From: an uncultured bacterium
GTDB lineage: Bacteria; Verrucomicrobiota; Kiritimatiellia; RFP12; UBA1067
Assembly: GCA_902799385.1 (NCBI GenBank)
Contig: CADCAK010000020.1
Location: 33,771-97,770 of the forward strand
Reading direction: 5' to 3'
Length of the DNA stretch: 64,000 bases
How positions within the stretch are numbered: position 1 is the first letter of the stretch; the number at the start of each line of letters is the position of its first letter. Position numbers and translations under genes: made by a program. Positions 2,122 to 23,553 of the stretch are shown here, piece by piece. The notes under the pieces were generated by a model. It searched no databases. It had not been told where the DNA came from and saw only the letters and a program-made list of their open reading frames with translations.

Positions 2122-3433
2122 CTATTTCCAATTGGAACCGGCAACATTGTCATTGGCAACATTTCCACATTGGCAACATTTCCCTTTCGCCTCCCGCACA
2201 AGGCGCTTCAACTGACAGACCATATACATAGGAAGCGACAAGAGAGAATATCTACTTTTGCGGCCAAGGCTGTCGGCGGCCTCGGCATTTGGAAGCAGCG
2301 AAGGCTCGTCCATATTGAAGCGGACGGCAAAATCACGTTTCTTCTCGTTCAGGAAGAAGTTCAACGACTTGAGGCTGCCGGTCGCGCCACTCTTTACCTC
2401 AACCGGTATGATGTCGCCCCCCATCTGGATGACGTAATCGACCTCAGCTGAAGAATTTCTCGCCTCGCGCATCCAGCAATACGCCGCTGGCGTTTCGTAT
2501 TCCCTGCCGGAATAAAGTAGATGCTGCCCGACGAACTGCTCGCAAATCTCGCCTTTGCGAAGTGTGGCAAACCTTGGCGACGATGCGGGCAAGCTCCAAG
2601 CGCGAAAACGCCTTGGAAAGATCGTTCGACTTTACTCCGGGATCGATATGCGAATAGATGAGCTTGCGCCCCAACTGGCTCGGCACAGACAAAAATACTT
2701 TCTGCAAAAGTTCCGCATTGGCCCGTCTGCCGTACTTCGGGAAGTCGTCGTGATAGGTCGACAATATCGCATCCTGCTCGCGCTGCGCATCGTCGAGGCC
2801 GCTTTCGATATAGGCTTTTACGGCCGCCGGCATCCCACCCACCACAAGATAGCGCCTAAGCCACAGCGACAATTCCTTGTGCAGCGCCTCCGGCATGTCG
2901 TCGCCAACGGAATACCTGCCAATGAAGTTGACAAGTCCCGTCTTGCCCGCCGCCAAGAGAAATTCATCGAAGTCAAGCGGAGCAAGATACATGTATTCAA
3001 TCCGGCCTACCGGCATCGGGAACGCCTTGTCGGGATTTTGCGTCGCGGCAGAAAGCATGAACTCCAAAAGCGATCCTGCCGCAATCACATGAAGCCCGGG
3101 GCGTTTCTCGTAGAAATATCTAAGCGATTCGAACACATAAGGCTCCGCCGCCTGCAATTCATCAAGGAAAAGAAGCGTCTCGCCATCCTTTACGGGCACG
3201 GAAAACCGAGAATTCAAAAGTTCGCAAATGACGTTCGGGTTTTTAGACTCGAAAAACTTGACAAATGACGCATCCTCCTCAAAGTTGACCTCAATGAAAT
3301 GCTTGAAGCACTTGCGGGCAAACTCCCTCACCAAATAGGTTTTTCCAACCTGCCTCGCACCCCTCAAGATTAAAGGATGGCGGGTCGCACGTTCCTTCCA
3401 ATTCTTCAGGCTTTCTTCAAGTTTTCTCTCCAT
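2122..3433 (-). pseudogene. AAA+ ATPase with DUF4143/PD-(D/E)xK-like C-terminus (COG1373 type), disrupted by an internal deletion plus frameshift
   Basis: ORF 2444..3433 carries Walker A (GARQVGKT), Walker B (LLFLDELQ) and GGMPAAV. ORF 2122..2592 carries the C-terminus (EVDYVIQ...PVEVKSG). The frames switch near 2558, and about 43 codons present in paralogs 14719..16056 and 20636..21973 are missing. Confidence 0.8.
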
Positions 3434-3463
3434 TACAACCTTCCTTTCGTTTCACCGGTACAT

Positions 3464-3472
3464 ATTATATCA
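3464..3472 (-). promoter_or_regulatory. extended -10 element TGATATAAT
   Basis: Lies 31 nt upstream of ATG 3433. Confidence 0.55.
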
Positions 3473-3532
3473 TATATTTAAGACAGAAAACAAGGGTGTT
3501 TATATATTTAATCAGACAAAAGACAAGGTAGT

Positions 3533-3718
3533 TCAACCACCAACCACAACGGAATCCAAGGTTGAATACCCCAACCAGACTGTTCCAATGGCAATTCCGA
3601 ACTTCCTCCTGTGCATGGCACTGCGAATCGCAATCCAAGCTGGCAAGACAAAAAGCACGAGTCCGGCACAGGGAATCAAAAGAGGTTTGACTATACAATC
3701 TATACAATCAATTGACAT
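3533..3718 (-). CDS. small hydrophobic protein (61 aa)
   Basis: Internal ATG of ORF 3533..3949: MSIDCIDCIVKPLLIPCAGLVLFVLPAWIAI. It starts 5 nt after the upstream stop. Two predicted hydrophobic helices. Confidence 0.3.
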   Translation of the reverse strand: MSIDCIDCIVKPLLIPCAGLVLFVLPAWIAIRSAMHRRKFGIAIGTVWLGYSTLDSVVVGG

Positions 3719-3722
3719 TATT

Positions 3723-3998
3723 TTACCCCAGACCCGGTAGTCGAATCTTTTCCTTGCCGCACCCAGATGAGCTTGCCCATATCGTATCCCCGCCGCCGCG
3801 CTTGTACTCCGATACGTCGGAAACGTTCCGTGATGCATAGAAATCGAGCGTCCACTTTCCGCCCTCGTCCGTCGATTCCTTCGGCCAATGCCCCTCGGCA
3901 TGATAGACGCGCTCGGCATAGAACGCCGTCCGCGTCTTGCACCCCACAACCGCGACCATCGCCGCGAACATAATGATTCTCAATCTCCGCTTCTTCAT
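3723..3998 (-). CDS. small lipoprotein
   Basis: MKKRRLRIIMFAAMVAVVGC has a lipobox. SD AAAGGAGAAGG lies upstream. Confidence 0.55.
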   Translation of the reverse strand: MKKRRLRIIMFAAMVAVVGCKTRTAFYAERVYHAEGHWPKESTDEGGKWTLDFYASRNVSDVSEYKRGGGDTIWASSSGCGKEKIRLPGLG

Positions 3999-4034
3999 CC
4001 TTCTCCTTTCGCTTGTCGCCGCCGCATGGCGCGA

Positions 4035-4496
4035 TTACAGGCTTTTCAAAAGCGCCGTGCAGCCTTCGAGGACGTCGGCGTATGTCTCGTCGAAGTTGTC
4101 GGTGTACCACGGATCGGCGATATCGCGTTCCGAACCGGCGAACGACAGGAGCTTTCTGATCTTCCCAGCTTCCTCCGGAAACACAAGCCGCCGAAGATCG
4201 GCGATATTATAGTCGTCCATTCCTATGAGCAGGTCGTATTCCCTCGCCTTCGCGGCATTCAGAAGCCATGCGCGACGCGGCGCGAACGGGATTCCCTCTG
4301 CCTGCAGCTTGCGGCGCGTGCCGTAATGGATATCGTTGCCGATCTCGTCTGTGTGCAGCGCGGCGGACTCGACCTCGATGTCGTCGCGCCCCGCCCTTCT
4401 GACGAGTTCCTTCATCACGAACTCCGCCATAGGCGACCGACATATGTTCCCGTGGCACAGGAACAGTATCTTCATCTTGTCATCGGTGTCTTTCAC
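4035..4496 (-). CDS. low-molecular-weight protein-tyrosine phosphatase
   Basis: P-loop motif CHGNICRSP and DPWY. GTG start with SD GGAGGGG; GTGA overlap with the upstream stop. Confidence 0.9.
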   Translation of the reverse strand: MKDTDDKMKILFLCHGNICRSPMAEFVMKELVRRAGRDDIEVESAALHTDEIGNDIHYGTRRKLQAEGIPFAPRRAWLLNAAKAREYDLLIGMDDYNIADLRRLVFPEEAGKIRKLLSFAGSERDIADPWYTDNFDETYADVLEGCTALLKSL

Positions 4497-5722
4497 TGTA
4501 CAACCCCTCCGTGAAACTCATCCAACAATTTCGGTGCCTGCCGGGCGAGGTGCCACCGCACCAGCGACTCGAGTCGGTCGTATGGGAATTCCCCTTCTCT
4601 CATCCACTTAGCGAGAAACGCGCCGAGCCATGCGGCCTCGCCTGTGCCGCTTCCGAAGTCAGGATCGTCTTCAATCCAACGTTCGAACTTCTCCAGCAGC
4701 TTCTTCTGCACCCTGGCGCTCTGCGACTTCCAACATGCGACAAAGAGCCCGTCTCGGCCGTCTTCGGGCACGATGTCAAGAAGTCGGCGGATCTGCGCGT
4801 CCGCGCCCTTCACCGATCCAAGATAGGAGAGAAGGAGTCCGTTGCTTCCATAGGAACTCCAATCCGTCTTAGCGATGATGCGCCCCATACGCGCACGCAC
4901 AAGTGTTCCTCTCTCCGCCAACAGACGCGCCAGCTGCAAGGCGAGGTCGAAGTGATAAAGAGAGCGGAAGTCGATGAAGCTTTCAAGCAGGAACTTGGCA
5001 TCCTCGTCGTCAATGTCGCCGAAAATGTAGGGCGCGTCCATCCCCCACTGCACAAGCGCGTCGAGGCTGATTGTCGAGGTGCCGCCGTCCCTGTAGCACT
5101 TGGGCCGACCGTAGCCGAGCGGCGCTGACGCCCTGCCGACAATCTGGACGCAGAGCCGCACAAGCCTTTCGTCCGGCTCGGACTTCGCGTCCTTCGGCGC
5201 GGCAAGCCTCATGTCAAAGAAATCTGTGCCTTCATGCGCAAGGAGCGACACCTTGTTTCCCAACCCGCCGCCGTAGCCGGTGAGGCTGCCGTCCGCGCCG
5301 ATGACGCGGTGGCACGGAATGATGATGCAGATTGGATTCCACCCAACCGCGCCGCCGACAGCCTGTGCCGAAACCCTGCCCCCGCGCTTTTTCTCAATCG
5401 CCTTCGCGATGTCGCCGTACGAGACCGTGGCTCCGTACGGGATTCGCAGCATTTCGTCGATGACCGCCTGACGAAACGGCGTCAATCCTTCAATGCGATA
5501 TTTGGGCACAAAGCCGGGATCATGCCCCGCGAAATACTCGTCGAGCCAGCGACACGTGTCGCGGAACACTGGCGTCTCTCGCCACTCGCACCCACGCGCC
5601 TCGTGCACATCATCGCGCGAGTCCTCAAACCAAAGCCCAGTCAGCGCCTCGACGTCCCCACACATCACGAGATCGTCGAATCCTTCTGGCGTCTTGTATT
5701 TCCAACTGTATTCCATATGCAT
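4493..5722 (-). CDS. ogt: methylated-DNA-protein-cysteine methyltransferase (MGMT/Ogt) fused to a ~230-aa C-terminal domain of unknown function
   Basis: Active-site motif IIPCHRVIG within the first ~180 aa. The remainder (FDMRLAAPKD...LDEFHGGVVQ) has no motif I recognise. Start trimmed to ATG 5722, just after the mpg stop. Confidence 0.8.
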   Translation of the reverse strand: MHMEYSWKYKTPEGFDDLVMCGDVEALTGLWFEDSRDDVHEARGCEWRETPVFRDTCRWLDEYFAGHDPGFVPKYRIEGLTPFRQAVIDEMLRIPYGATVSYGDIAKAIEKKRGGRVSAQAVGGAVGWNPICIIIPCHRVIGADGSLTGYGGGLGNKVSLLAHEGTDFFDMRLAAPKDAKSEPDERLVRLCVQIVGRASAPLGYGRPKCYRDGGTSTISLDALVQWGMDAPYIFGDIDDEDAKFLLESFIDFRSLYHFDLALQLARLLAERGTLVRARMGRIIAKTDWSSYGSNGLLLSYLGSVKGADAQIRRLLDIVPEDGRDGLFVACWKSQSARVQKKLLEKFERWIEDDPDFGSGTGEAAWLGAFLAKWMREGEFPYDRLESLVRWHLARQAPKLLDEFHGGVVQ

Positions 5723-5724
5723 CC

Positions 5725-6276
5725 CTATTTGCAAAGTGTCCAGCGCCACTTGCGATTCTGATCGCGTTTGGAAGCGTATGCGATGCCGATGCGCGGGGCG
5801 GAGGCGAACTTGACGCGCGCGCCTTCGCTTTCAAGCCAAAGGCGATTCGAGAGAACGAGGTCTTCGCGGTTGAGCGAGCGGTCGATTTTGAGAAGCTTCG
5901 TCAACCGTCCGGGGCCTTCCGCGCCTTCCACGCCACGGATGAGCACCGCCTCGGGACATCCTTCCGGCCCCGTCACGACATTCAGCATTTCGTGCATCCC
6001 GTAGCAGAGGTAGATGTAGGCGCAGCCGCCAGGCGAGTACATCACGTCCGTACGCGCCGTGCGCCCCTTGTGCGCATGGCAGGCCGTGTCCTCCTCGCCG
6101 CAGTACGCCTCCGTCTCGGTGATGCGCCGACGAATGACGGCCCCATCCTCCATCCGACGGCAAAGCCACGCGCCGACAAGCGCCTTTGCCGCCGTAACCG
6201 CGTCAACCGCATAATCTTCTGCCATCAACCTACGCATCATTTCTCCTTCGGACAATCCTTGCTCAACGGCAGTCAT
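5725..6276 (-). CDS. mpg: DNA-3-methyladenine glycosylase (Mpg/AAG family)
   Basis: ITETEAYCGEEDTACHAHKGRT...YIYLCYGMHEMLNVV. ATG 6274-6276 overlaps the TGA of the upstream ATPase fragment (ATGA). Confidence 0.85.
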   Translation of the reverse strand: MTAVEQGLSEGEMMRRLMAEDYAVDAVTAAKALVGAWLCRRMEDGAVIRRRITETEAYCGEEDTACHAHKGRTARTDVMYSPGGCAYIYLCYGMHEMLNVVTGPEGCPEAVLIRGVEGAEGPGRLTKLLKIDRSLNREDLVLSNRLWLESEGARVKFASAPRIGIAYASKRDQNRKWRWTLCK

Positions 6277-7566
6277 GCAAGCAGCCACTTCCATGCCGGC
6301 ACGATGCGAATGCCGTCGGACTCGCCTTCGTCGTCCCACGTCACAATCGTGCAGTCGCGTATTCCCGTCTCGTCGCGGGCGAGCTTCAGCGCATTCATCT
6401 CACGGCCAAATGTAGCCGCATCAGACATAGCGTATGAAACCTGAATCAGGCTCTCCTTGCGCGACACTTTGTCGTGAACATGGAAATCAACCTCGGTTCC
6501 GTCGTCGTTGGCAATATAGGAGATCTTGCCACCCTTGCGTCGCAACGACATATAGACGATTCTCAAGCATCCATCCCCGCTCGGCGTCGTTCTTCACGCA
6601 CATCGCGCGAATCAGCCCAGGATCCACCAGATAGTATTTGTCCGGGTTCACTCGCTTTACCGCAAGCGAATCTGAAAGAACAGATACGGAATAGGAGAGA
6701 TATGCATCCTTAAACCAGTCAAGATAGTCCGCAATGCTCTCGCGGTTTGCCGGCAGGGAAAGATTCTTCAGGACGCCGGAGATGCTTCGCGTGGACGTTT
6801 TGCGCGCGTAGTTATGGAAAAGATACTCCAAAGTGTACTTGAGCACCTGAACGCTCGGCACGGAATGGCGTTCTATGATGTCCCTGTAGATTACGGCATC
6901 GACATACCCCTGGAGCATAGATGCGCGCATCCCGTCGGAAACATCCTGCACATCGGGAAATCCTCCGCGTTCCATGTAGTCCGACATCGCCCTGCGCATG
7001 AGCCCCTTCTCCCGTGCCGTGAACCCAGCGCGTGGAATCTTCTTGAACACTCCGTTGAACCTAAGATATTCCGGGAAAGACAGCGGGAACACCTCTATTG
7101 GAAGCGAACGGCCGCGCATCTGCGTAGCAATCTCTTCTGAAAGCAGCTTTGAGGACGAGCCTGTGAGGCAAAGCTGCACGTTTGGCGAATCAACAAGCCG
7201 CCGAGCGTATGACTCCCATCCTTTGATGTTCTGAAGCTCGTCAAGAAAATACCATGTCTTGCCGTCGGCAAATTCAGGATAGAGCTCGGCATGGATTTCT
7301 CCAATCAGGCGCAAATCGTCTACCTTCAGCCCCGACAGCCGCTCGTCCTCGAAATTGACATGAACTATCCGTCCCAGAGGAATGCCGTCATCCAGAAGCC
7401 GTTTCATGCGTCCATAGGCAAGGAAGGTCTTGCCTGTTCGACGCATACCCTTTATCACCGTCGAAGCACGCAACTTCTCGGCATATTCCACATCACGCGA
7501 GACGATTCCGCCTGGAACCCCATCGTGATAGAATTCGCGCATTACAGACATCAACTCTTCTTTCAC
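6273..7566 (-). pseudogene. AAA+ ATPase/DUF4143 (COG1373 type) with a single-nucleotide frameshift
   Basis: ORF 6487..7566 (GMRRTGKT, WYFLDELQ) continues in another frame as ORF 6273..6566. The junction is ...ERGWMLEN / (I)VYMSLRRKGG near 6555-6570. No homopolymer or slippery run at the site. Confidence 0.75.
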
Positions 7567-7599: not shown

Positions 7600-7608
7600 A
7601 TTATACCA
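7600..7608 (-). promoter_or_regulatory. extended -10 element TGGTATAAT
   Basis: Lies 34 nt upstream of ATG 7566. Confidence 0.55.
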
Positions 7609-7733
7609 AACGCCATTAATATTGGCAAGTGTGCCTTGCCAATATTGTATAAAATTGGCAAGGCGCGACACACCATCCTAGTGCATGTATCATTTGCTTT
7701 TTCACAAGTTCGTTCCTTTCGAATTTCTTTTTT

Positions 7734-7938
7734 GACAGGATTTACAGGATTAACAGGATTGTTTTTTAAGCAGGTAGAGCAGGAGATGCAGGAGAGTTTA
7801 GGTCCGCCTTCGGCGGGGTTTGGGGGCAACCCCAGTCTTCCTCCTGCTTCTCCTGTTCTCCATGCCAAAAACCATCTTCTGTATCTCCTGTTCTCCATGC
7901 TAAAATCCTGTTAATGTGGCGCACCTTGTTAATCCTGT
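7734..7938. repeat. palindromic MITE-like element; its arms are built of RACAGGATT 9-mers
   Basis: Left arm GACAGGATTTACAGGATTAACAGGATT...AGCAGGTAGAGCAGGAGA. Central GC hairpin. Right arm TCTCCTGTTCTCCATGCTAAAATCCTGTTAAT...AATCCTGTC. A second copy lies at 54939-55072. Confidence 0.75.
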
Positions 7939-7977
7939 CTAAAAACCTTCCCGCGACAATCCGCGCAAATATCTTGT

Positions 7978-8175
7978 TTAATGTTGCCATTGTGGAAGTG
8001 TTGCCAATTCCAATGTTGCCAATTTCCAACTGGTCCGCCGTAGCCTTGGCGTAGGCGAATTGGTAATCGGTATTGGTAATGGCAACACTTTTTCACATCT
8101 TGACCTCGGTAGCCTCGGCGAAGGAGGTTGGCAACATTCTCCCCCGGCCCGCGCAAATGTCATTCGAGTATTCAT
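7978..8175 (-). other. repeat-derived ORF opened by the MNTRMTFARAGG module and running through CCAAT/TTGCCAAT-rich filler
   Basis: ATGAATACTCGAATGACATTTGCGCGGGCC at 8175. Downstream it reads ...WKLATLELATLPQWQH*. Composed entirely of modules seen elsewhere in the window. Confidence 0.3.
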
Positions 8176-8210: not shown

Positions 8211-8573
8211 TCAAGTTTTCCCCAATGAAAACATGACAAAGCCACCTAAACAGGCCAGCACATGAAACAGCAAAAGCAGCGCAAGGCAAATGTTGACGGT
8301 CTTTTTACTGCTCGACAGCAAGCACATTCCAACAAGCGTAAAATATGCAATATACAATGAAGCACACAGCCAGAAAAACACTAAACCCTCGCCTATCACT
8401 CGACCCAACAATAATACATCGACCGCATAAACCAAAAACACAGGTGCCAAGGCGAACATCGCCAGTGCAATCTTGAAAAAATGGCTGGCATCCACAAACA
8501 AAGCGCTTATCAGCGACATTGCGCATCCCATCACCAGCACACACGCCAACCGCCCTTTTATGCCGAACTTCAT
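8211..8573 (-). CDS. small integral membrane protein (about 4 TM)
   Basis: Hydrophobic throughout. ATGA overlap with the upstream gene. Confidence 0.6.
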   Translation of the reverse strand: MKFGIKGRLACVLVMGCAMSLISALFVDASHFFKIALAMFALAPVFLVYAVDVLLLGRVIGEGLVFFWLCASLYIAYFTLVGMCLLSSSKKTVNICLALLLLFHVLACLGGFVMFSLGKT

Positions 8574-9682
8574 ACTTCCGCTCCTTTCTTAATCCTGTCA
8601 ATCATGTTAATCCTGTCTAAAAGGCCATCTCCTTTCACGATCAGTTTGAAATAGTCTTCGCATTCCTGTCCCTTGCAATTGAAGAGAAAGACAAGCCCCC
8701 ATCGTATGTGCTCGGAGTACATTGCTTTCGGAACCGTGAACGCGAAGCTGCCCGCATGAACCAATGCAGGGGAATCCGCTTCGTACACCGTCTCCTGGAT
8801 ATCCTTCTCCTGCGTGCCCGCCTCGCGTATCGCGCCGTCGGACTGGACGAGCAAGACCTTTAGTGCGTTCGGCGCGGAAGCGCCAGCGAATTCGTAACAG
8901 ACGCACATCTCCGCGCCAGTCCTCCACTTGCCGCCCGTGAACGTGACCTTGTAGTGCGGCTGAGCTGCCTCGCGCCTGACCATACGGACTACAAACGCCG
9001 CATAGGTACCTACCACCGCCACAGGCGAGACAATGAGAAAGCATTTGAACGCAAAAGGATCAGTGAAAAGTTGAAAGCCCTTAAGCCCGATTATGAGCCC
9101 AAGCGCTGCTATGCATCCCAGGAAGCCGCCGACCAATTTTGGAAGATCAAGATCGCGCGACCTTCTCAGGCAAACGGTCTGCTTGCCCCGCACGGTTGTC
9201 TTGCCCTTGAGAAATGGCCTTGCCAGCTCATGGACACCGATTAAAAAGACCAGCATTCCGATTAAGAAGAAAATCACAAACAAGATTATCGGAAGGACAT
9301 TGTGCATCACCAGCGCAAATACCCTGAAAAACATTGGAAGATTCGTATCGCCAGCTCTGGCATTCTCGGCCACCGTGCTGCAGACGCCGAGAACTCCCAA
9401 CAGGGCAAACATCGCACCCAATATGACAAACATGAACTTGCCCATCAACGAACCCGGTTTTGGCTTTTCGTCCCCTCTGGAGAACAGCATCGCGATACCT
9501 GATGCGACTACGACAACGCCGAGCGCCCAAAATCCGGAAAAGAACGTGTACATCATCCACCGTCCGTATGGATCAGGAACATCACTCTTGCCCACCCCCG
9601 AGCTACATGAAAAGAGCCACGTGATGACGGCAAGAATGCTGCACCAAACGATGCCGAACAAAAGAAGCGAAGCCTTCTTCAT
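8570..9682 (-). CDS. membrane protein (about 6 TM plus a soluble C-terminal domain) of unknown function
   Basis: MKKASLLLFGIVWCSILAV. The C-terminal 16 aa (LLDRINMIDRIKKGAEV) are encoded by the (RACAGGATT)3 repeat at 8589-8622. Confidence 0.65.
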   Translation of the reverse strand: MKKASLLLFGIVWCSILAVITWLFSCSSGVGKSDVPDPYGRWMMYTFFSGFWALGVVVVASGIAMLFSRGDEKPKPGSLMGKFMFVILGAMFALLGVLGVCSTVAENARAGDTNLPMFFRVFALVMHNVLPIILFVIFFLIGMLVFLIGVHELARPFLKGKTTVRGKQTVCLRRSRDLDLPKLVGGFLGCIAALGLIIGLKGFQLFTDPFAFKCFLIVSPVAVVGTYAAFVVRMVRREAAQPHYKVTFTGGKWRTGAEMCVCYEFAGASAPNALKVLLVQSDGAIREAGTQEKDIQETVYEADSPALVHAGSFAFTVPKAMYSEHIRWGLVFLFNCKGQECEDYFKLIVKGDGLLDRINMIDRIKKGAEV

Positions 9683-9741
9683 TCTCCCGCTCCTTTCGAC
9701 TTGTCAGCGGCGGCCCGCGCAAACATCATCCGCGTATTCAT
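9679..9741 (-). other. upstream ORF, MNTRMMFARAAADKSKGAGE (module A)
   Basis: SD GGAGGAATCGAA precedes the ATG at 9741. Its TGA overlaps the ATG of gene 8570..9682 (ATGA at 9679-9682). Confidence 0.45.
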
Positions 9742-9786: not shown

Positions 9787-10236
9787 CTATTTGCTAACAT
9801 AGATAACCTCCTCGCAATTTGTCACAACACCTTTTGAGTCAAACCAGAATGTCGGAACATACTGTCGTCCCAGCCAATCGGTACGGCACACATCATAGAA
9901 TTGCCAGCAATATGCCTCCATCGCGCGTTCGTCTTTCGCAAGTATTGCGTCAAGGTTCTCAACTCCTGGCCAATCCTCATTGACTCCCACCACTTGCAAA
10001 CCCCAACGAGGGTACACGCTACGCGGGTCGCGTCCATCACCATTGCAATAAAGGTCTATCTTAAACGAAATTGGACGCCAACTATCTACCCAACGCTCGT
10101 ACATGACGACCAACACCTCTTTGCGATTCTTGCCCACCAGCGAGTCCATTTCTTTTTGCCGCGCACAAGCACACCCCGCCAAGCATAGCATCGCCGCTCC
10201 CGCGACGGCCCGCGCAAACATCATCAGCGTATTCAT
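9787..10236 (-). CDS. lipoprotein of unknown function
   Basis: ORF trimmed to MNTLMMFARAVAGAAMLCLAGC (lipobox). The ATG overlaps the TGA of the upstream gene. Confidence 0.65.
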   Translation of the reverse strand: MNTLMMFARAVAGAAMLCLAGCACARQKEMDSLVGKNRKEVLVVMYERWVDSWRPISFKIDLYCNGDGRDPRSVYPRWGLQVVGVNEDWPGVENLDAILAKDERAMEAYCWQFYDVCRTDWLGRQYVPTFWFDSKGVVTNCEEVIYVSK

Positions 10237-13043: not shown

Positions 13044-14198
13044 TCAGTGCCTCATTTCCAGACTTCGGCATGATTCGATTACTCGCTCCAAGATTGGCTC
13101 GCTTTTATGCGATTCAAGTCCAACATCCCTGGCAAGGCGACGAAGATCGGCAACGCCTGGATTCGCGCCCTCGCCGGCGACGGAAAGCGTCTGCCAGCCG
13201 TTGGGACCCTCCGCATACGTGAAATCATAGAACGGCGCAAGTGACCAACGACCCTTCTCGTCCATCAGGAAAGAGAAGTTCTTCAGGTGGTCGTCCCTGT
13301 TGTGCGCGATAACATTCAGGCAGGCGCGGCGAAATAATTCCTCTTTAGCAGACATGTCATGCGTCAAAGCATCGGTCAGACGGGATAGGAGCGCGTATTC
13401 GTCGCCTGGAATTCTGAAGTCGGCATGGAGAAGTCCAGCGGCGCTAGCCATGTGGACGCGTCCACCGCCAGGCGTGCGGTCGAATCGCCGCGTCATGAAG
13501 AACCTACCCACCTTCGTAGCGACTAGGCAGCTTGGCGCCATGTTCGCCCCCGCCGCAAGCGCGACCTCGTAATAACGGTATTCCATTTCGCCAGCCTTAT
13601 CACCCTCGCGCCGCGTGTTGAATTTCACGATCCAATGCTCGAAGCCTGGCGGCAGGACTGGACGCTCCGCGCACACTTCTCCCATCTTGGGATTGTACCC
13701 GACATACGCCTTTGGCCGCGCGCCACCGGAACTTCCTCCGGCCTTGCGAAGTCGCGGAAGCGCACTCTCCGCCTCCCCCGCATCGAACGCCATCGCCTCT
13801 TCCGCAAGCGCGGCGAGGTCGAACGCTTCATTCTCCACATCAGCCGCTTCGTCTGCCGGTTCGTACACAAGCGCACCTTTCCCGGAGCGACCAACGCACA
13901 TAAGCCGCTCGGTAATCGTCGGCAGGCGCCCCTCACGTTTCATGAACATCCTGTCAACGATTCTCCGCCCCCATCCATCCGGCAGCGAATCATCGAAAAG
14001 TCCGAACGTTTCCATGTTTCCCGAGCGGTCGTATATTTTCAACCCACCGCCAAGAGGCAGACGAAACGGTGCAGGGTTTAGCTCCAACGAAAGGAACTCC
14101 CCCGCGAACTCAAACGCCGTATCGCGCCCCACTTCGGAAAAGGTCCCGACCCTCATTTCGCGGCCGCTGCCAAAGTCCAATTTGACAGTCAATTTCAT
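13044..14198 (-). CDS. hipA: type II toxin HipA-family serine/threonine kinase
   Basis: Motifs DSLPDGWGRR, GGARPKA, NRDDHLKNFSFLM and LAPFYDF. Confidence 0.9.
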   Translation of the reverse strand: MKLTVKLDFGSGREMRVGTFSEVGRDTAFEFAGEFLSLELNPAPFRLPLGGGLKIYDRSGNMETFGLFDDSLPDGWGRRIVDRMFMKREGRLPTITERLMCVGRSGKGALVYEPADEAADVENEAFDLAALAEEAMAFDAGEAESALPRLRKAGGSSGGARPKAYVGYNPKMGEVCAERPVLPPGFEHWIVKFNTRREGDKAGEMEYRYYEVALAAGANMAPSCLVATKVGRFFMTRRFDRTPGGGRVHMASAAGLLHADFRIPGDEYALLSRLTDALTHDMSAKEELFRRACLNVIAHNRDDHLKNFSFLMDEKGRWSLAPFYDFTYAEGPNGWQTLSVAGEGANPGVADLRRLARDVGLESHKSEPILERVIESCRSLEMRH

Positions 14199-14539
14199 CG
14201 TGACGCCTCCTTGTGGCGGACGCGCTGAATGACTTTCGGCGTGAACTCGAAATCGCCCTCCAGTGTCTTGGGGAACTTGACAAGACGCAACTGTGCCTTG
14301 AGCATGTCCTCGAACGCGTCAAGCTTGTTCAACGCGAAAAGCACCTTGAAAAGCGTATCAGTAGAAGCAAGCCCCGTCCGCTCCAAACGTGAAATCGTCG
14401 TCATCGGAACGCCTGAACGTCTCGCAAGGTCGGCCTGAGTCCATTCCTCGCGCTGCCGCGTCAGACGAACAAGCTCGCGCAAACTCGCCAACACATCATT
14501 TACCGTTGTTAGCGGCAATATACTGCTTAAATCGTTCAT
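14195..14539 (-). CDS. hipB: XRE-family HTH antitoxin (HipB-like)
   Basis: HTH segment WTQADLARRSGVPMTTISRLERTG. 4-nt overlap with hipA. Confidence 0.8.
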   Translation of the reverse strand: MNDLSSILPLTTVNDVLASLRELVRLTRQREEWTQADLARRSGVPMTTISRLERTGLASTDTLFKVLFALNKLDAFEDMLKAQLRLVKFPKTLEGDFEFTPKVIQRVRHKEASR

Positions 14540-14554: not shown

Positions 14555-14570
14555 CAATATATTGCCGTTG

Positions 14571-14642: not shown

Positions 14643-14722
14643 GCTGCGACATCCTTTCCTGTTTCCACCGATATTTTACTCGCGCAGAGACGCGATGCGC
14701 GAGATATCATCCGCATATTCAT
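14639..14722 (-). other. short ORF MNMRMISRASRLCASKISVETGKDVAA
   Basis: Its ATG overlaps the TGA of ATPase 14719..16056 (ATGA). Its TGA overlaps the next ATG. Confidence 0.3.
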
Positions 14723-16056
14723 ACGGATCCCTTTCGCAAGAAGTCTTCATATTCGCCAATGAAGTAAAGCGGCAGGATGCGAACGGCATCATCAATTAGA
14801 CCAAAGTTCTCTTCGGAGGTTCGGATGGCAAGCTTCAGGTTCTTTTCCTCCATAAGAATGCGCAGACTCTTCATTGAACCCTTCACGCCGGACTTCACCT
14901 CGATCGGCAAAACACAGTTGCGGAACTGCACAACATAATCCACTTCCGCATTGGAGTTCCGCGACTCCCGGTGCCAGAAGAAGAGTCGCCGCTCGTCGAA
15001 TGGCGATGCGGCTTTCACCAGTTCGTGGCCTGTGAACATTTCAGCAAGGGCTCCTCGATTGATGAATTTCGCAGGCGGCTCAAGAATCCAGTCGGAAATG
15101 TCCAGCCCGCTTGCCGTCAGGTAGAGTCCCGTATCCAGCGGAAGAAACTTGTTGTCGTTGGCCTTTACGTCCGCACCAAGCGGGATGCCGTTCGCATGAC
15201 AGGAATCCACTCTGTAGATCAGCCTCGCCATCTCCAGCAGCGTTGCACAATCCTTGGCCTGCGCATAGCTAAGCCCCGCTTTAGAATCTGAATACGTGAA
15301 TTTGCGACCGGTCTGATCAATGACTGAATTGAACACGGTTACTATTCTCGCGGCGGGAATGCGCTTCTTGTACTTGCCGAAATCGGCCTTGAGCGACACG
15401 AGGATATCCCGGTGCTGCTCTTGAGCGGCAAGCAGACTCTTGGTCTGGGCAAACGCGCAAACCGCCGCCGGCATTCCGCCCACTATCAAGAACGACTTGA
15501 GATAGTCGAGCATCATTTCATGGCCATCGGGGAAAAGCGGGGATGCAAACGTGGCGTCGCGGGCGCGTTCAAGCGACACCTCCGCCCCCATTGCCGACAC
15601 GAACTCCGCAAAGGACATCGGATGCATGAACATATTGCGGATTCTCCCTACGCCAAAGTCGGCAATCTCGCCAAATGCAAATTCCAGCAGCGACCCGGTC
15701 GCAACCACATGCAGTTCCGGCATTTTCTCGTAGAAATACCTTAGACAGGAAATGGCTCGCGGACAAAGCTGTATCTCATCCAGAAACAATAGCGTCTTAC
15801 CGGGAACGATCTTGGTTCTCTTTTTAAATTCTATGGCCGCCAGAATCTTGGGAATATCAAAGTCGCCGTTGAAGACGGTGTTGAACGCAGCATCGTCCTC
15901 AAAGTTGATTTCAATGAACGACTCGAACTTTTCGGCAAGGTGTCTGACTGCCGTAGTCTTGCCAATTTGCCGCGCTCCGCGCAAAAGCAGCGGCTTGCGG
16001 CCAGATTCGCTGGCCCACGCTTCAAGATGCCGGTCTATTTCTCGTTTCAGGTACAT
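14719..16056 (-). CDS. AAA+ ATPase with DUF4143/PD-(D/E)xK-like C-terminus (COG1373 type), intact
   Basis: GARQIGKT, LLFLDEIQ, GGMPAAV, EVDYVVQ...PIEVKSG. Start trimmed to MYLKREIDR because the -10 element lies inside the longer ORF. Confidence 0.85.
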   Translation of the reverse strand: MYLKREIDRHLEAWASESGRKPLLLRGARQIGKTTAVRHLAEKFESFIEINFEDDAAFNTVFNGDFDIPKILAAIEFKKRTKIVPGKTLLFLDEIQLCPRAISCLRYFYEKMPELHVVATGSLLEFAFGEIADFGVGRIRNMFMHPMSFAEFVSAMGAEVSLERARDATFASPLFPDGHEMMLDYLKSFLIVGGMPAAVCAFAQTKSLLAAQEQHRDILVSLKADFGKYKKRIPAARIVTVFNSVIDQTGRKFTYSDSKAGLSYAQAKDCATLLEMARLIYRVDSCHANGIPLGADVKANDNKFLPLDTGLYLTASGLDISDWILEPPAKFINRGALAEMFTGHELVKAASPFDERRLFFWHRESRNSNAEVDYVVQFRNCVLPIEVKSGVKGSMKSLRILMEEKNLKLAIRTSEENFGLIDDAVRILPLYFIGEYEDFLRKGSV

Positions 16057-16092: not shown

Positions 16093-16101
16093 ATTATACC
16101 A
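16093..16101 (-). promoter_or_regulatory. extended -10 element TGGTATAAT
   Basis: Lies 37 nt upstream of ATG 16056. Confidence 0.55.
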
Positions 16102-16289
16102 CAATCACCCCCTAAATGTCAATAGCCAAAAGTCAAAATCCAAGGAAATAAACTTTACTTAAACATCAAATTACAAAGATTACTTGTATGCTACCACATC
16201 AAAATCCAAGGTAAAAATCCATGTTGGATTTCTCCTTTGTGGTGTTTGTTTCTCCTTGCCCCCCGCACCGTGCGAAGGGAAAGAAAGCA

Positions 16290-18336: not shown

Positions 18337-18504
18337 TCATTGACAATTGGAATTGGTCTTGGAAACATTTTCACATTTGCAACATTTCCCGCTCCCCTTA
18401 CACAGAGCGTCCACCTTCGCCAAGGCTTCCCCCTTCGCCAAGGCTACGGAGGACAAGACGGAGGATAAAACGGAGGACAAGTTGATTCGTGCAAATGGTT
18501 TCAT
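18337..18504 (-). other. upstream ORF MKPFARINLSSVLSSV...CCKCENVSKTNSNCQ (module C/D)
   Basis: Its ATG overlaps the TGA of Sel1 gene 18501..19238 (ATGA). It stops 13 nt before ATG 18323. Confidence 0.4.
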
Positions 18505-19326: not shown

Positions 19327-19339
19327 CGCCGTTCTCCTT

Positions 19340-19426
19340 TCATTGGCAATTGGAATTGGTCTTGGCAACATTTTCACATTGGCAATATTCTCCTCCAACC
19401 CGCGCAAATATCATCCGCGTATTCAT
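19340..19426 (-). other. upstream ORF MNTRMIFARVGGEYCQCENVAKTNSNCQ (module A fused to module D)
   Basis: Its ATG overlaps the TGA of gene 19423..20529, in the context GGAGGAATCGAAATGA. Confidence 0.4.
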
Positions 19427-20529
19427 TTCGATTCCTCCGTTGACGGTTCTTCTTGTCCTTCTCGCCAAAGGCGCGAGGTCCTTATTTGCGGAAACAAGCC
19501 ATCCGAAATGCTGACAACCGCTCGCAATTCACATTCGTCTGGAAGATCAAACCGCTTGCGAACCTCCTCGGGACGACGCCAAACATAGACACTGAGCCTT
19601 ATGCCGTCTGGACGCACCGCATCCAGCCGGAACCGCCAAGCCCCCGGCTCACTGTCGGCCGAAACGCGGTCAACCGCGCCGTCGCAGTCGAAGCCGTCGG
19701 CCCGAGCCAGCTTCAGAACCTCGTCTTCAGCAGCCTTGCGCTCTTCGTTCGAGAGCGACATTGGATAGTTGCGACCGAACGCGATACCGGAGATCGTCTT
19801 CGTGCGCAGCGAATATTCGGCGTAGCTGTGCGTGAAGAGTGGATGGTCAAGCGGCACGCAATCCTCTCTCCAGTAGCGAACCTTAACTCCACCCACTTCA
19901 ATGCAACCGTCGAGAAGCGTCGCCCCCGGCGGCGCGACCTTTGGAATCTTCACTCCAAGAAGTTTGTCGGGGAACTCAGTAGCCTGCGGCACCTGCGGAG
20001 GAGGCTCGCCGTTTTCCTTCACCCACGCCGCCCACTCGTCGTCATTCATCAGCCGCACCGACAAGTCAAGCACCTTTTGGTTGTCATCGCATTCCTTAAA
20101 GTGAAACTCGCCCGCAAGCCCTGAGTTAGCCGCCCAGATCATCCTCATAGGGTCGTGAGTCCAACGACTACTACTTAACGTGCCCTTGGCTCGAACTGCA
20201 GGCAGTTCTAATTGACAATCCCATATCAATTCCTCCCGCGACTTGCTGTCCCATTCCTGCGAAAGGTCGCGCGAACGCAGGACGATACATTCCGCCCTGC
20301 CCGAAGCACCGCGCACGACTCTCGCCCACTTCCAGTCCTTGTGCTTGACATTCACCCACTGCCCCGTCGAATTCAGCGACGCCACCTCAATTCCAAACAA
20401 CTGTTCCGGCAATTCTGCCGCGCGTCCCCACGCCACATTCGCCACCACCGCCTCGCCATGCCTGGCCATGATGGCAATCGCTATGGCCGCAGCAATCGCA
20501 AGCGCTGCAAATACGATTTTCTTATTCAT
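19423..20529 (-). CDS. secreted 368-aa protein of unknown function
   Basis: MNKKIVFAALAIAAAIAIAIMA is a signal/anchor sequence. The last codons (TEESK) are encoded by the junction module. Confidence 0.65.
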   Translation of the reverse strand: MNKKIVFAALAIAAAIAIAIMARHGEAVVANVAWGRAAELPEQLFGIEVASLNSTGQWVNVKHKDWKWARVVRGASGRAECIVLRSRDLSQEWDSKSREELIWDCQLELPAVRAKGTLSSSRWTHDPMRMIWAANSGLAGEFHFKECDDNQKVLDLSVRLMNDDEWAAWVKENGEPPPQVPQATEFPDKLLGVKIPKVAPPGATLLDGCIEVGGVKVRYWREDCVPLDHPLFTHSYAEYSLRTKTISGIAFGRNYPMSLSNEERKAAEDEVLKLARADGFDCDGAVDRVSADSEPGAWRFRLDAVRPDGIRLSVYVWRRPEEVRKRFDLPDECELRAVVSISDGLFPQIRTSRLWREGQEEPSTEESK

Positions 20530-20621
20530 GCTCCCGTTCCTTTCTTAATCCTGTCAATCCTGTTAATCCTGTCTAAAAACCTTCCCGCGCCGCCCCGCGC
20601 AAACATCATCCGCGTATTCAT
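20526..20621 (-). other. upstream ORF MNTRMMFARGGAGRFLDRINRIDRIKKGTGA (module A plus 9-mer repeat)
   Basis: Its TGA overlaps ATG 20529 (ATGA). It starts 15 nt after the ATPase stop. Confidence 0.45.
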
Positions 20622-20635
20622 GTGGTTCCAACCGA

Positions 20636-21973
20636 TCAAATCTTATATATCATATGCTCCGGCAGTGCGACGGGCAGTATGAATTGTGCCATGTAGATTG
20701 GCGCATAGGTAATCCGGCCTTCTTTCTTGATGTTGCCGTTGCAAAGCACAATCGCCTCCGGGATGTCGTATGCGCTTGACGCCATGACATTTGCCAGAGC
20801 CGCGTGCTTGACGTAGTCCTTGCCGCTTTTCACTTCCAGAGGCAGGACCTTTCCTGCAACTTCAAGGACAAAATCAAGTTCGCCCTGCTTCTTGGAGTTG
20901 AAATAGTTCGGCTCCAGTCCGTGCGCCGTAAGTTCCTGCGCAACCGCATTCTCATAGACGGAGCCAAAGTTCACCGACTTTTCGCCGTTGAGGATTTCTA
21001 GCTGTATGCCGTCCATGTATTGCGCGGCGAGGAGCCCCACGTCGTTGGAAAACAACTTGAAAAGGCTGGGCTTGCGGGCCAGTTTGAGCGGGGAAACCGG
21101 TTCTTCGACGCAGTAGGACGGAATCGCTACGCCAGCTTCCTTCAGCCACAGGAACTCGTCCGACAGATTCTCGAAGCGCGTGCCGACCTGTATGCTGCTC
21201 GCATAGAAACGCTTGTTGCGCTTGTTCAATTCGCCAGGCATGCGGTCAAACACCGCGCGTATTCGCAAAGCATTCTGCTCATCGTATTGCGCAATATCGC
21301 GCCGATACATAGCGACTATCTGACGTTGAACGCGCGTAACCGCCGCGATGTCCGAAGTGTCAACGTAGGTCTGGACGGCGGCCGGCATGCCACCTACCAC
21401 AAGATAAAGCGAGAAAAGTTTCATCAGCCGCTCATGATAAAAGGAATCAAGGGCAGTGCGCGCTTCCCATGCATTGCGGGCTTCGGCAAGGAGCGTCTCG
21501 CTTTCGCCATTGGCTGACAGGAATTCCTCGAAATCAAGCGGATACATCTTTACCTCGTCCATATAACCGACTGGAACTGAGCGGATGTTCTTTAGTTCAA
21601 CCCCCAGCAGCGAACCACTCAAAATGTAATGGCAAGAACCTTCCTCTACGAGAAACTTGATAAAAGTTACAGCATCGGGGCATGCCTGTATCTCATCGAG
21701 GAACACAAGCGTATCACCTCGCTTGAGTTCTGAGCGCGAAAACGCGGATATTTTCACCAACGCCTCCTTAGCGCTGGCGGAATTCTCGAAAATGCCCTTA
21801 GCCCCCTTGTCCTCAAGGAAATTGATTTCTATGAATCGTGAATAATTCCTGCGGGCAAACTCGCGAATGATAAACGTCTTGCCAACCTGACGCGCACCGT
21901 CAACCAGCAAGGCATACTTTCCTGCGTCTTTGCGGAATCGCTCTAGTCTTGTCGCAATTTTTCGCTTTAACAT
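20636..21973 (-). CDS. AAA+ ATPase/DUF4143 (COG1373 type), intact
   Basis: GARQVGKT, LVFLDEIQ, GGMPAAV, ELDFVLE...PLEVKSG. Confidence 0.85.
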   Translation of the reverse strand: MLKRKIATRLERFRKDAGKYALLVDGARQVGKTFIIREFARRNYSRFIEINFLEDKGAKGIFENSASAKEALVKISAFSRSELKRGDTLVFLDEIQACPDAVTFIKFLVEEGSCHYILSGSLLGVELKNIRSVPVGYMDEVKMYPLDFEEFLSANGESETLLAEARNAWEARTALDSFYHERLMKLFSLYLVVGGMPAAVQTYVDTSDIAAVTRVQRQIVAMYRRDIAQYDEQNALRIRAVFDRMPGELNKRNKRFYASSIQVGTRFENLSDEFLWLKEAGVAIPSYCVEEPVSPLKLARKPSLFKLFSNDVGLLAAQYMDGIQLEILNGEKSVNFGSVYENAVAQELTAHGLEPNYFNSKKQGELDFVLEVAGKVLPLEVKSGKDYVKHAALANVMASSAYDIPEAIVLCNGNIKKEGRITYAPIYMAQFILPVALPEHMIYKI

Positions 21974-21999
21974 GCTATTTTCCCTTTGTTACGCGACAC

Positions 22000-22008
22000 A
22001 TTATATCA
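22000..22008 (-). promoter_or_regulatory. extended -10 element TGATATAAT
   Basis: Lies 27 nt upstream of ATG 21973. Confidence 0.55.
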
Positions 22009-22121
22009 CACTTTGGACATTTTTACAAGTGGCCACCGGCCGAATTCTACATTTTTCCAAGATGAAATCACAGCCAATCATACACTTTTCCAAAACCGCC
22101 TGCAATAATTTTTGGCGAAAG

Positions 22122-22250
22122 TCAATACGAACAACGCTGCTTATTTGGCTTTTCTACCCACGAACTACGACTCGTATATGGCTCTTTTACTACTAATTCC
22201 TTCCGCGCTATTCCCGCGACGGCCCGCGCAAACATCATCCGCGTATTCAT
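22122..22250 (-). other. orphan module-A ORF MNTRMMFARAVAGIARKELVV... (42 codons)
   Basis: Exact module ATGAATACGCGGATGATGTTTGCGCGGGCCGTCGCGGG. No gene is attached. Confidence 0.3.
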
Positions 22251-22294
22251 CGTACTGCTCTTACCTTTGCCAAGATGTTGTTTTATGGCTGTGC

Positions 22295-23422
22295 CTACAT
22301 GAGGAAGCCATCGTAGCTCTCTCGCCTTATCACGCTGTATGTAGCATTTGGATATGCGGCTGCGAACGGCTGCGGCATCTTTGCCTTTTCATGCGGATTC
22401 CACTTGAACTCAAACGCTTTTATCTGTCCGTCCAACTCCTCTATGTAGTCAATCTCGCTCTGTGTCGTTGTTCGCCAGAAGTAGCTGCGGGCGTATGACT
22501 GCGCGTAGGCCAATCGTTTCAGCCTCTCCGACACCAGCCAGTTCTCCCACAACGCACCGACATCGGTACGCAGCGTAAGCGGCGCAAAATTGCCCAACAC
22601 GACATTGCGGATTCCGTTGTCCCAGAAGTATATCTTTCTCGCCCGCTTCAATTCATTGCGTGCATTGCGCGCAAACGACCTAAGCGAAAACACGACAAAA
22701 GTCTTTTCCAGCAAATCAATGTAGCTTTCGACCGTCGCCTTGTTGAGCCCTGTCATCTGGCCAAGTTCATTGGCCGAAACTTCACTGCCAAGTTGCAACG
22801 CAAGACATTGCACAAGCCGCGACAACACATCGGGTTTCCGTATGCCGTCAAACGACAACACATCTTTATACAACGCTCCGCTTGCTATCGACTCCAATAT
22901 CCGTCGGCCATCGTTCGGCGCCGTCACCACCTCGGGATAGCTGCCATATACGAGCCGTTCTTGCAAAAGGCGTTGCTCCGCCAGTTCCGCGCCGGATTGC
23001 GCTGCCAACTCCCCATGCGAAAGCGGATACAGGCGGTACTCGAAAATCCGCCCGGCAGCCGACTCAAACACGCCATTTGCCAGTTCCAGCGCACTTGATC
23101 CAGTGGCAACAATCTGCGCTCGCGCCCCCAGCGCATCCGCAAGCATCTTGAACACCATCCCGACATCAGGTATGCGCTGTGCTTCGTCAATCAGCACCAG
23201 TTGTGCGTTGCCAACAATATTGAGCAGTTGCGTTGTGTTTGGATTGGAAAGTCGCTCGCGCTCATCGGCATTGTCGCAATTGATGCGCACGACTCGCTCC
23301 ACATTTTCTGCCAGTTGATTCAGGAGCGTGGTCTTGCCTACTTGTCTTGCACCAAGCACCAAGACAACCTTCCCTTTCCCGAAATCACTTCGGATTTTGG
23401 CCTCTATATTGCGCTTTATCAT
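22295..23422 (-). CDS. AAA+ ATPase/DUF4143 (COG1373 type), shorter subfamily, intact
   Basis: GARQVGKT, LVLIDEAQ, EIDYIEE...FEFKW. Start trimmed to MIKRNIEAK, downstream of the -10 element. Confidence 0.8.
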   Translation of the reverse strand: MIKRNIEAKIRSDFGKGKVVLVLGARQVGKTTLLNQLAENVERVVRINCDNADERERLSNPNTTQLLNIVGNAQLVLIDEAQRIPDVGMVFKMLADALGARAQIVATGSSALELANGVFESAAGRIFEYRLYPLSHGELAAQSGAELAEQRLLQERLVYGSYPEVVTAPNDGRRILESIASGALYKDVLSFDGIRKPDVLSRLVQCLALQLGSEVSANELGQMTGLNKATVESYIDLLEKTFVVFSLRSFARNARNELKRARKIYFWDNGIRNVVLGNFAPLTLRTDVGALWENWLVSERLKRLAYAQSYARSYFWRTTTQSEIDYIEELDGQIKAFEFKWNPHEKAKMPQPFAAAYPNATYSVIRRESYDGFLM

Positions 23423-23447
23423 TCCCTTCTCTCCGTTTGACGCATAT

Positions 23448-23456
23448 ATGATACCA
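23448..23456 (-). promoter_or_regulatory. extended -10 element TGGTATCAT
   Basis: Lies 26 nt upstream of ATG 23422. Confidence 0.45.
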
Positions 23457-23553
23457 TATTTCGTCACAGCGCGTCAATGCTAATAGCCAAATTTGATATT
23501 ACTTTGGCTACCATGCCGCCTAAAACAATACTACATTTAGACATTCTATACCA

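Follow-up and report, generated by a model that had tools for sequence, protein, structure and literature searches.

Among the described candidate defense systems of prokaryotes, the closest counterpart of the genes analyzed here is PDC-S01, which belongs to a set of 145 untested candidates and owes its nomination to the embedding of members in restriction-modification (RM), BREX, or DISARM loci (bioRxiv 2024.01.29.577857). Members of PDC-S01 consist of an ATPase fused to a PD-(D/E)xK domain and provide the fourth most common defense call in prokaryotes, with validation pending for most of the defense candidates (PMC12988326); in rumen genomes, PDC-S01 is the most frequent single locus (PMC13356809). 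A search of the literature on AAA_14/PF13635 gave mostly noise, and DUF4143 was found in three papers, none of them a functional study. Here we analyze a 64,000-nucleotide (nt) stretch of DNA from an uncultured gut/rumen bacterium of the Kiritimatiellia lineage (GenBank assembly GCA_902799385.1, contig CADCAK010000020.1; hereafter, the window, to which all coordinates refer unless another locus is named) that contains five co-oriented genes of this family, COG1373-type AAA+ ATPases with DUF4143, within 21 kb. The explanation that we favor, and consider probable, is that these are autonomous PDC-S01 ATPase-nuclease cassettes, that is, conflict or immunity genes, residing in a recombination-prone array.

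The window proteins have the same ATPase plus PD-(D/E)xK architecture as PDC-S01, for which a partner gene is not required. The difference lies in the setting: the nominated members are located in RM, BREX, or DISARM loci, none of which is present here, whereas the five window members belong to an array of secreted-protein cassettes. The NTPases of the STAND/Avs type and the ORC/Cdc6 type likewise combine a nucleotide-binding domain, a helical domain, and a winged helix joined to a nuclease; in contrast to STAND/Avs proteins, however, those of the window are predicted to end in the C-terminal nuclease, without a sensor repeat domain (TPR, WD40, or LRR) according to Pfam and the structural model, and the Pfam nSTAND matches in the five copies are weak and below threshold. 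The single-chain design of an ATPase and a PD-(D/E)xK nuclease is also found in AAA-ATPase_like/PDDEXK_9 (DUF1703) and Arch_ATPase/DUF234 proteins, which belong to different Pfam families, with none in the window. The family, which the original prediction, made from the sequence alone, considered functionally uncharacterized, is catalogued as PDC-S01, an experimentally unvalidated candidate.

Five ATPase-DUF4143 genes, three of them intact

In the first 26 kb of the window, all long open reading frames (ORFs) are on the minus strand, and a Pfam scan identified AAA_14 followed by DUF4143 in five genes (copies 1 to 5, in the order of coordinates), which confirms both the family and the common orientation and positions initially proposed. 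The AAA_14 scores of copies 1 to 5 are 75.1, 105.5, 99.3, 93.0, and 95.7 bits (Pfam cut-off 27), and DUF4143 exceeds its cut-off of 28.1 bits in all five, with 41.3 bits in the second piece of copy 1 and 31.5, 83.4, 88.0, and 133.4 bits in copies 2 to 5, respectively. A tblastn search of the whole window with all five copies detected no sixth one in the remaining 38 kb (26-64 kb). The PADLOC models of PDC-S01 match all five copies, over the full length in the intact copies 3-5 (E-values from 1e-128 to 1e-185), and the best sub-models for copies 1 to 5 are 04788, 04787, 04788/86, 04792, and 04789, respectively; to this extent, the link between COG1373 and defense made in the original prediction is supported.

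Three copies look functional and two are decaying. The intact genes are copy 3 (14719..16056, minus strand; 445 amino acids; AAA_14, 2e-28; DUF4143, 2e-23; PADLOC PDLC04788, 4e-128), copy 4 (20636..21973, minus strand; 445 amino acids; PDLC04792, 1e-185), for which the protein structure was modeled, and copy 5 (22295..23422, minus strand; 375 amino acids; DUF4143, 8e-39; AAA_14, 3e-27; PDLC04789, 4e-150 over the whole profile). Copy 1 (2122..3433, minus strand; AAA_14, 6e-21; DUF4143 on both pieces) is a pseudogene consisting of two ORFs, each matching a PADLOC model (PDLC04788, 4e-90 and 2.5e-36); in the BLAST comparison with copy 3, the homologous pieces meet at about 2558-2562 and cover copy-3 residues 3-289 and 332-442, with the approximately 42 codons for residues 290-331 deleted and the frame changed. 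Copy 2 (6273..7566, minus strand; AAA_14, 2.6e-30; PDLC04787 in two pieces, 2e-78 and 5.5e-20) is a frameshifted pseudogene, separated by a 2-nt length difference near 6540-6555 from an intact orthologue of 431 amino acids that is 92% identical at the protein level (L026 15726-17021; the loci used for comparison are designated by L numbers). The deletion in copy 1 and the frameshift in copy 2, both anticipated from the sequence, are borne out by these two comparisons.

Sequence motifs and predicted structure

Of the three motifs originally attributed to all copies, Walker A (GxRxxGKT) is indeed present in all five translations, as GARQ[VI]GKT or GMRRTGKT, and each of the other two holds for four. 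Walker B is FLDE[LI]Q in four copies and LIDEAQ in copy 5; E-x-D-[YF]...E-[VF]-K is found in four copies and is represented in copy 2 by EVDF...QVS, with the QVS variant kept across 115 homologues of that subfamily. In an alignment of 26 sequences including copies 3-5, the invariant residues are G26, G31, K32, T33, D93, and E94 in the ATPase domain and E341, E347, E365, D367, E380, and K382 in the C-terminal domain, where they map to the helix and to the second and third strands of the core seen in the model.

The AlphaFold2 model of copy 4 (predicted local distance difference test score, pLDDT, 84.8; predicted template modeling score, pTM, 0.87) ends in an alpha-beta-beta-beta-alpha-beta arrangement (H336-350, E356-360, E364-372, E375-381, H391-398, E407-411). 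Foldseek comparison of the whole model produced matches to MalT, RFC, MuB, ORC/Cdc6, and Avs3, which places the protein on the initiator/clamp-loader/STAND-like side of the AAA+ ATPases. When residues 292-445 were modeled alone, the Foldseek matches were almost exclusively to PD-(D/E)xK nucleases, including Cas4-like ACE1, AF1548, McrC, Can2, DdmD, Hjc, MGME1, and the SPARDA nuclease. A sequence search of the PDB with copies 4 and 5 yielded nothing useful, that is, no solved structure is detectable by sequence. DUF4143/COG1373 had been assigned to the PD-(D/E)xK superfamily (Steczkiewicz 2012, PMC3424549), and the identification of the C-terminal domain as a PD-(D/E)xK nuclease, suspected at the outset from the motif, is supported by this assignment, the copy-4 model, the Foldseek matches, and the conserved E...D...ExK signature; the model, the matches, and the invariant residues all point to a nuclease fold rather than to its absence.

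Promoters and upstream repeats

Copies 1-4 are each preceded, at a distance of 26-36 nt, by the exact extended -10 element TGnTATAAT, for which TGGTATCAT substitutes in copy 5; the earlier claim of such an element 26-37 nt before every copy is thus accurate for four of the five. This element occurs 13 times in the window, compared with 0.43 occurrences expected, and is found also upstream of housekeeping genes and of the secreted-protein gene at 1911, with the related TGGTAATAT in front of hipB. This distribution identifies it as a general extended -10 element of the organism rather than one specific to the ATPases.

The original view that each copy has its own promoter is confirmed. Within the first 27 kb of the window, copies 2-5 and hipB have the strongest full -35/-10 matches, and most other genes of the island lack such a match. 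Copy 1 is preceded by the extended -10 element TGATATAAT (3464..3472). The promoter-like sites of the other copies, each with the TG extension, are TTGCCA-17-TATAAT for copy 2 (7600..7628), TTGACA-18-TATAAT for copy 3 (16093..16122; 12 of 12 matches), TTGTAA-17-TATAAT for copy 4 (22000..22028), and TTGACG-18-TATCAT for copy 5 (23448..23477), all five elements being on the minus strand.

Every ATPase promoter has its own upstream repeat pair, direct or inverted. Two direct repeats CCTTGTYTTYTGTCT precede the element of copy 1; the operator-like repeats CTTGCCAA lie just upstream of the copy 2 site; the sites of copies 3 and 4 follow two direct repeats each, CCTTGGATTTTGA and CTTGGAAAA(A/G)TGTA, respectively; and that of copy 5 follows the inverted repeat TAGCCAAA...TTTGGCTA. 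These pairs may be operators. The 644-nt spacer upstream of copy 2 additionally contains, at 7690-7973, nested inverted repeats (GACAGGATTAACAGGATT versus AATCCTGTTAATCCTGTAAATCCTGTC) and GCATGGAGAACAGGAGA repeats; the 9-nt unit of the repeats in this spacer, AGGATTRAC, also builds the 31-codon linker described below.

A putative mode of action

Under the explanation that we favor, each protein is a single polypeptide composed of an N-terminal AAA+ ATPase (ORC/Cdc6-RFC-MuB/STAND-like), a middle part with a helical domain and a winged helix, and a C-terminal PD-(D/E)xK nuclease, and each ATPase gene, together with its strong extended -10 promoter and operator-like repeats, forms a cassette complete in itself. 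Binding of ATP could trigger oligomerization on DNA through the ATPase-winged-helix module, bringing the nuclease domains together and resulting in DNA cleavage, such that a single gene would be sufficient for conflict with, or immunity to, phage or other foreign DNA; as judged from domain architecture and structural neighbors, ATP-gated assembly on DNA would activate the nuclease, which is probably directed against such DNA. Autorepression of the promoter by the winged helix is also probable. Because most of the downstream genes have no consensus promoter and are chained by overlapping short linker ORFs, transcription that starts at the ATPase promoters probably reads through into them; such read-through would explain why the two pseudogenes have kept perfect promoters.

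Several observations weigh against this scenario. Oligomerization, DNA cleavage, autoregulation, and read-through are all steps that we infer; the C-terminal Foldseek matches have E-values of only about 1e-2, and the model of residues 292-445 has a pLDDT of 69; and the copy-2 subfamily lacks the ExK lysine, with QVS instead. A phenotype has been demonstrated for no PDC-S01 member, and the defense activity of the family is putative; when candidates were tested in Escherichia coli against T4, T5, and T7, four gave protection, and the one randomly chosen representative of PDC-S01 did not (bioRxiv 2024.09.26.614923). Many homologues are found alone among housekeeping genes, and comparison of 20 neighboring proteins of the island with defense models produced only generic helix-turn-helix (HTH) and Sel1 noise. 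Some homologues are located near DNA methylase or Fic/RadC genes, and the only conflict-type neighbor in the island is hipBA. Given that none of the 20 neighbors matched a defense model, the island is not a classical defense island, contrary to what the density of the family and its decaying members had originally suggested.

An array of cassettes joined by short linker ORFs

The region that extends to about 26.2 kb of the window, with a G+C content of 0.49-0.60 compared with 0.60-0.66 in most of the remaining window and a strong negative GC skew, is a strain-shuffled, recombination-prone array of genes for secreted proteins, lipoproteins, and membrane proteins. The 30-nt sequence ATGAATACGCGGATGATGTTTGCGCGGGCC, encoding MNTRMMFARA, is present there in seven copies (0 expected), all of those in the window falling between 9.7 and 24 kb. 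For two secreted-protein or lipoprotein genes, at 12086 and 10236, MNTRMMFARA is the real start, within the signal peptide; elsewhere, it opens short ORFs of 20, 28, and 31 codons in the window, along with a 25-codon class found only on related metagenome contigs. MNTRMMFARA or linker sites are located at 8128-8175, 9679-9741, 10207-10236, 12057-12086, 19340-19426, 20526-20621, 22122-22250, and 23925-24020, and in loci within the range L035-L100.

Many of these short ORFs overlap their neighbors. On the minus strand, the 20-codon ORF at 9679..9741 is coupled through ATGA to the membrane-protein gene 8570-9682, the 31-codon ORF following copy 4 (20526..20621) overlaps with its stop the start of the gene 19423-20529 (ATGA), and another 31-codon ORF (23925..24020) is coupled to the gene 23554-23928. 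After copy 3, a degraded linker (14672..14722, minus strand), which is intact in L100, overlaps with its ATG the stop of the ATPase gene (GTATGAATATG). This ATGA junction with a short linker ORF is the only case in which the stop/start overlap that the original prediction described between the copies and the next frame is found; for the other copies, it is not. The gap between copy 2 and the following MPG gene is about 35 nt, judged from the orthologue, and the remaining gaps are 14-321 nt. Between copies 5 and 4, a linker remnant of 42 codons (MNTRMMFARAVAG...; 22122..22250, minus strand) also retains, by comparison with L093, part of the promoter module that belonged to another ATPase cassette; the presence of this module upstream of copy 4 points to cassette replacement.

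The same organization recurs in metagenomes. The MNTRMMFARA sequence was detected on 66 contigs, frequently in more than one copy, with the linker start fused either to varied lipoprotein or secreted-protein ORFs or to the recurring classes of short ORFs. Among the 92 linker occurrences, 56 are short closed ORFs; all 21 of the 20-codon linker ORFs overlap the downstream ORF through ATGA or GTGA at their end, and in 38 of the 92 cases, the linker ATG overlaps the stop of a preceding frame that is 50 codons or longer. The order of the cassettes varies between strains, with breakpoints in the linker repeats. The linker-bearing arrays also contain COG1373 genes, namely, 12 genes or fragments on 10 of the 66 contigs (220 kb in total), including three within 5.8 kb in L074.

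The short motif AATGTTGCCAA is present in direct and inverted copies in the intergenic modules (2146-2192, 7980-8138, 18352-18398, 19355-19401); 10 of its 12 matches fall within the island, compared with 0.84 matches expected by chance in the whole window, and the 28-codon linkers include this motif. When the same flank was sought in other strains through exact matches to the protein of the flanking PRT gene, only the same metagenome was returned. A tRNA search found none, so that the island has no tRNA-linked boundary, and an Rfam search of the whole window gave no match.

We found no description of a linker-joined, strain-shuffled cassette array enriched in COG1373 genes. As a tentative proposal, to which we assign a considerably lower probability than to the autonomous cassettes themselves, this could be a new kind of gene-cassette array in gut and rumen Kiritimatiellia, in which the MNTRMMFARA linkers would stitch genes together, serving both as translation couplers and as homology for exchange, and PDC-S01 cassettes would be preferential residents that supply transcription and, possibly, recombination.

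Selfish elements or an integron-like array?

By our confidence, the alternatives to autonomous PDC-S01 cassettes rank, in descending order, as selfish or recombination-driving genes, an integron-like array, a role in repair, and local duplication. The first of these, which we regard as unlikely, is that the ATPase-nuclease genes are selfish or drive the shuffling themselves: cleavage by their nuclease at the linker repeats or close to them, followed by recombinational repair, would spread the gene and reorder the cassettes, in a manner resembling a homing nuclease or a fusion of a MuB/TnsC-like ATPase with a TnsA-like nuclease. The strong enrichment of COG1373 in linker contigs (12 genes or fragments in 220 kb) and the presence of five genes in 21 kb here would fit this possibility, as would the appearance of MuB among the top structural matches, the common occurrence of pseudogenes and truncated copies, and the bounding of the copy-4 cassette by linker starts: in the window and in L072, this cassette is flanked on both sides by CCACATGAATACG. 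Adjacent paralogues, too, are found in unrelated genomes (L007, L008, L019, L028-30, L032). In one of these, a Kiritimatiellia/Lentisphaerae genome, L028-L030 8001-12775 carries three different ATPase-PD-(D/E)xK genes consecutively: a copy-2 homologue, a second AAA_14/DUF4143 gene, and an AAA-ATPase_like/PDDEXK_9 gene.

However, the genes have neither terminal inverted repeats nor a partner transposase or recombinase, and conservation of the cassette ends does not extend past the ORF; breakpoints occur equally at cassettes without an ATPase, as in L053, where the gene 8570-9682 is joined directly to the gene 19423-20529; and many homologues are stable single genes in housekeeping neighborhoods that are conserved across samples. 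The 1-26 kb region contains no transposase according to Pfam, and transposon-like ends were rejected because homology between strains stops at the ORF or promoter, without inverted repeats.

Compared with selfish genes, an integron-like origin of the array, that is, a chromosomal integron or an attC cluster without an integrase in which the ATPases would be ordinary cassettes, appears still less probable, and we consider it very unlikely. The resemblance to chromosomal integrons is substantial: the genes are co-oriented, accessory, and mostly small, with functions that are obscure in most cases; conserved repeats are found at almost all junctions; the order of cassettes varies between strains; and both a toxin-antitoxin pair with its own promoter and other promoter-bearing cassettes able to drive downstream genes are present. 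The junctions themselves, however, differ. Those of the window are unstructured coding linkers that overlap their neighbors, consisting of translated or overlapping short ORFs or of real signal-peptide codons, rather than folded attC sites. Six strand-specific single-strand folds at three linker junctions gave z-scores from -0.41 to +1.69, so that the junctions, unfolded as single strands, are not attC-like, and the integron/attC interpretation was rejected on this ground. Furthermore, there is no integrase among the ORFs scanned, with the caveat that the array continues past the left edge of the window.

Genes downstream of the ATPases

According to the original prediction, each copy heads a block of cargo genes. 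Copy 2 is followed by genes for an MPG glycosylase, an MGMT fusion, and a low-molecular-weight (LMW) phosphatase (4035..6239, minus strand; Pfam), and downstream of copy 3 is a hipB-hipA toxin-antitoxin pair (13044..14539, minus strand; HipA_C, 1.8e-45; HTH_3), which has its own promoter at 14546-14574. In the MGMT-fusion gene (4493-5749, minus strand), the MGMT domain occupies residues 90-174, and the fused C-terminal part, about 240 amino acids long, has no Pfam match. The other neighbors identified by Pfam are Sel1-repeat proteins and a four-helix-bundle (23S_rRNA_IVP) protein, and many proteins lack a Pfam match but contain signal peptides or membrane segments.

These associations are not conserved among homologues or near-identical strains. 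None of the window neighbors recurs in the neighborhoods of copy-4 homologues (20 genomes, four Kiritimatiellia contigs). The copy-2 homologue at 84% identity is followed by another AAA_14/DUF4143 gene and an AAA-ATPase_like/PDDEXK_9 gene, and those at 71% and 68% by a DUF805 gene and a gene for an unknown protein, respectively; MPG is kept after copy 2 only in the 92% identical orthologue of the closest relative, L026. Downstream of copy-3 homologues, the analysis found a two-component system or a metallo-beta-lactamase-fold protein, and L100, identical (100%) to the window over the 3' end of copy 3, continues with the intact short linker ORF and a membrane-protein gene, without hipBA. Likewise, L060 carries copy 5 at 98% identity, followed by two small cassettes in place of copy 4. 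The absence of conservation, together with the differences between near-identical strains, indicates that these genes are neighbors by cassette order rather than functional partners, and the notion of cargo blocks was therefore abandoned. Two specific candidates were also rejected, ATPase2-MPG as a conserved module, for its presence only in the closest orthologue, and ATPase3-hipBA, by L100 and the neighborhoods of copy-3 homologues.

Against this background, a housekeeping or repair role that the ATPases would perform jointly with the genes that follow, for example, copy 2 with MPG and MGMT in alkylation repair, is highly improbable. The proposal draws on the short distance of about 35 nt, with no consensus promoter between, at which the MPG, MGMT-fusion, and phosphatase genes follow copy 2, and on the same ATPase-MPG adjacency in L026. 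This adjacency, however, is confined to the 92% identical orthologue and is not found with the 68-84% homologues; copy 2 is a pseudogene next to intact repair genes; and the MPG region has been rearranged independently in L026 and L043.

The surroundings of the repair genes show further traces of such changes. In L026 (14689-14772 and 15726-17193), a 68-nt fragment of the MPG 3' end lies upstream of a lipocalin gene and of the intact copy-2 orthologue, which is in turn followed by a full MPG gene; in the window, the degraded 3' end of a lipocalin gene is located at about 3720-3760, upstream of copy 1. These arrangements show local rearrangement around the repair genes. In L043, most of the MGMT-fusion gene is missing between the MPG and phosphatase genes.

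Origin of the five copies

Pairwise identity among the five copies is 22-37.5%, and in a neighbor-joining tree they belong to five separate lineages. The relatives of copy 4 include metagenomic proteins at 99%, 87%, and 78% identity, a protein from a yak-rumen Kiritimatiellae metagenome-assembled genome (MAG) at 68%, and, within Firmicutes, proteins of Lachnospiraceae and Oscillibacter at 56-58%. Relatives of copy 2 are 84-98% identical, homologues of copy 3 reach 96%, and copy 5 is related to the gene in L060 (98%) and to one in a Bacteroidales MAG (45%). The source names attached to the matches, among them Candidatus Colisoma and Kiritimatiellae bacterium, indicate Kiritimatiellia as the host lineage. 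The family is large, with 8,881 clusters at 50% identity matching copy 3 at E≤1e-3, and relatives are found on 74 viral contigs in IMG/VR.

The low identities and the five separate lineages imply that the copies are not local duplicates, and the best-supported interpretation of the sequence comparisons is that they represent independent members of COG1373/PDC-S01 that diverged long ago and would have been acquired or retained separately. Local tandem duplication of a single gene, to which only the common orientation and proximity of the copies would point, has a negligible probability, and a recent event is excluded by the identities and the tree, given that the highest identity is 37.5%, that the copies match four different PDC-S01 sub-models, and that the copies searched are far closer to foreign relatives (96-99% in metagenomes; 45-68% in other Kiritimatiellia, Firmicutes, and Bacteroidales) than to one another.

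Other features of the window

Outside the island, an ORF resembling REP-associated tyrosine transposases (RAYT) is located at 36988-37809 (minus strand; Pfam Y1_Tnp, 3.8e-08; NCBIfam REP_Tyr_transpos, 67 bits, under the cut-off of 80). On its two sides are the arms of a perfect inverted repeat of 21 nt (36930-36950 and 37991-38011) containing the palindrome GGGGACAGACCCC; a similar element, GGGGACAGGCCC, is found upstream of the copy-4 homologue in L072. Adjoining the RAYT-like gene is an ORF of 845 amino acids without Pfam or NCBIfam matches (37899-40436, minus strand), in a patch with a markedly low G+C content (0.41, compared with about 0.6 in the window DNA on either side), which is possibly foreign DNA.

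Implications

The family to which the five genes belong is already catalogued, and what is unusual is the linker-joined, strain-shuffled setting enriched in COG1373 genes. The locus constitutes a compact test set, with three intact and very different PDC-S01 members that have native promoters and operator-like repeats, next to two decayed ones. It shows that PDC-S01 genes need not occupy classical defense islands: here, they are found in a strain-variable array of genes for surface and secreted proteins, where the operon-like blocks headed by ATPases are accidents of cassette order, a reason for caution in guilt-by-association annotation. The architecture of short linker ORFs, if real, would represent a new mode of organizing and expressing accessory genes.

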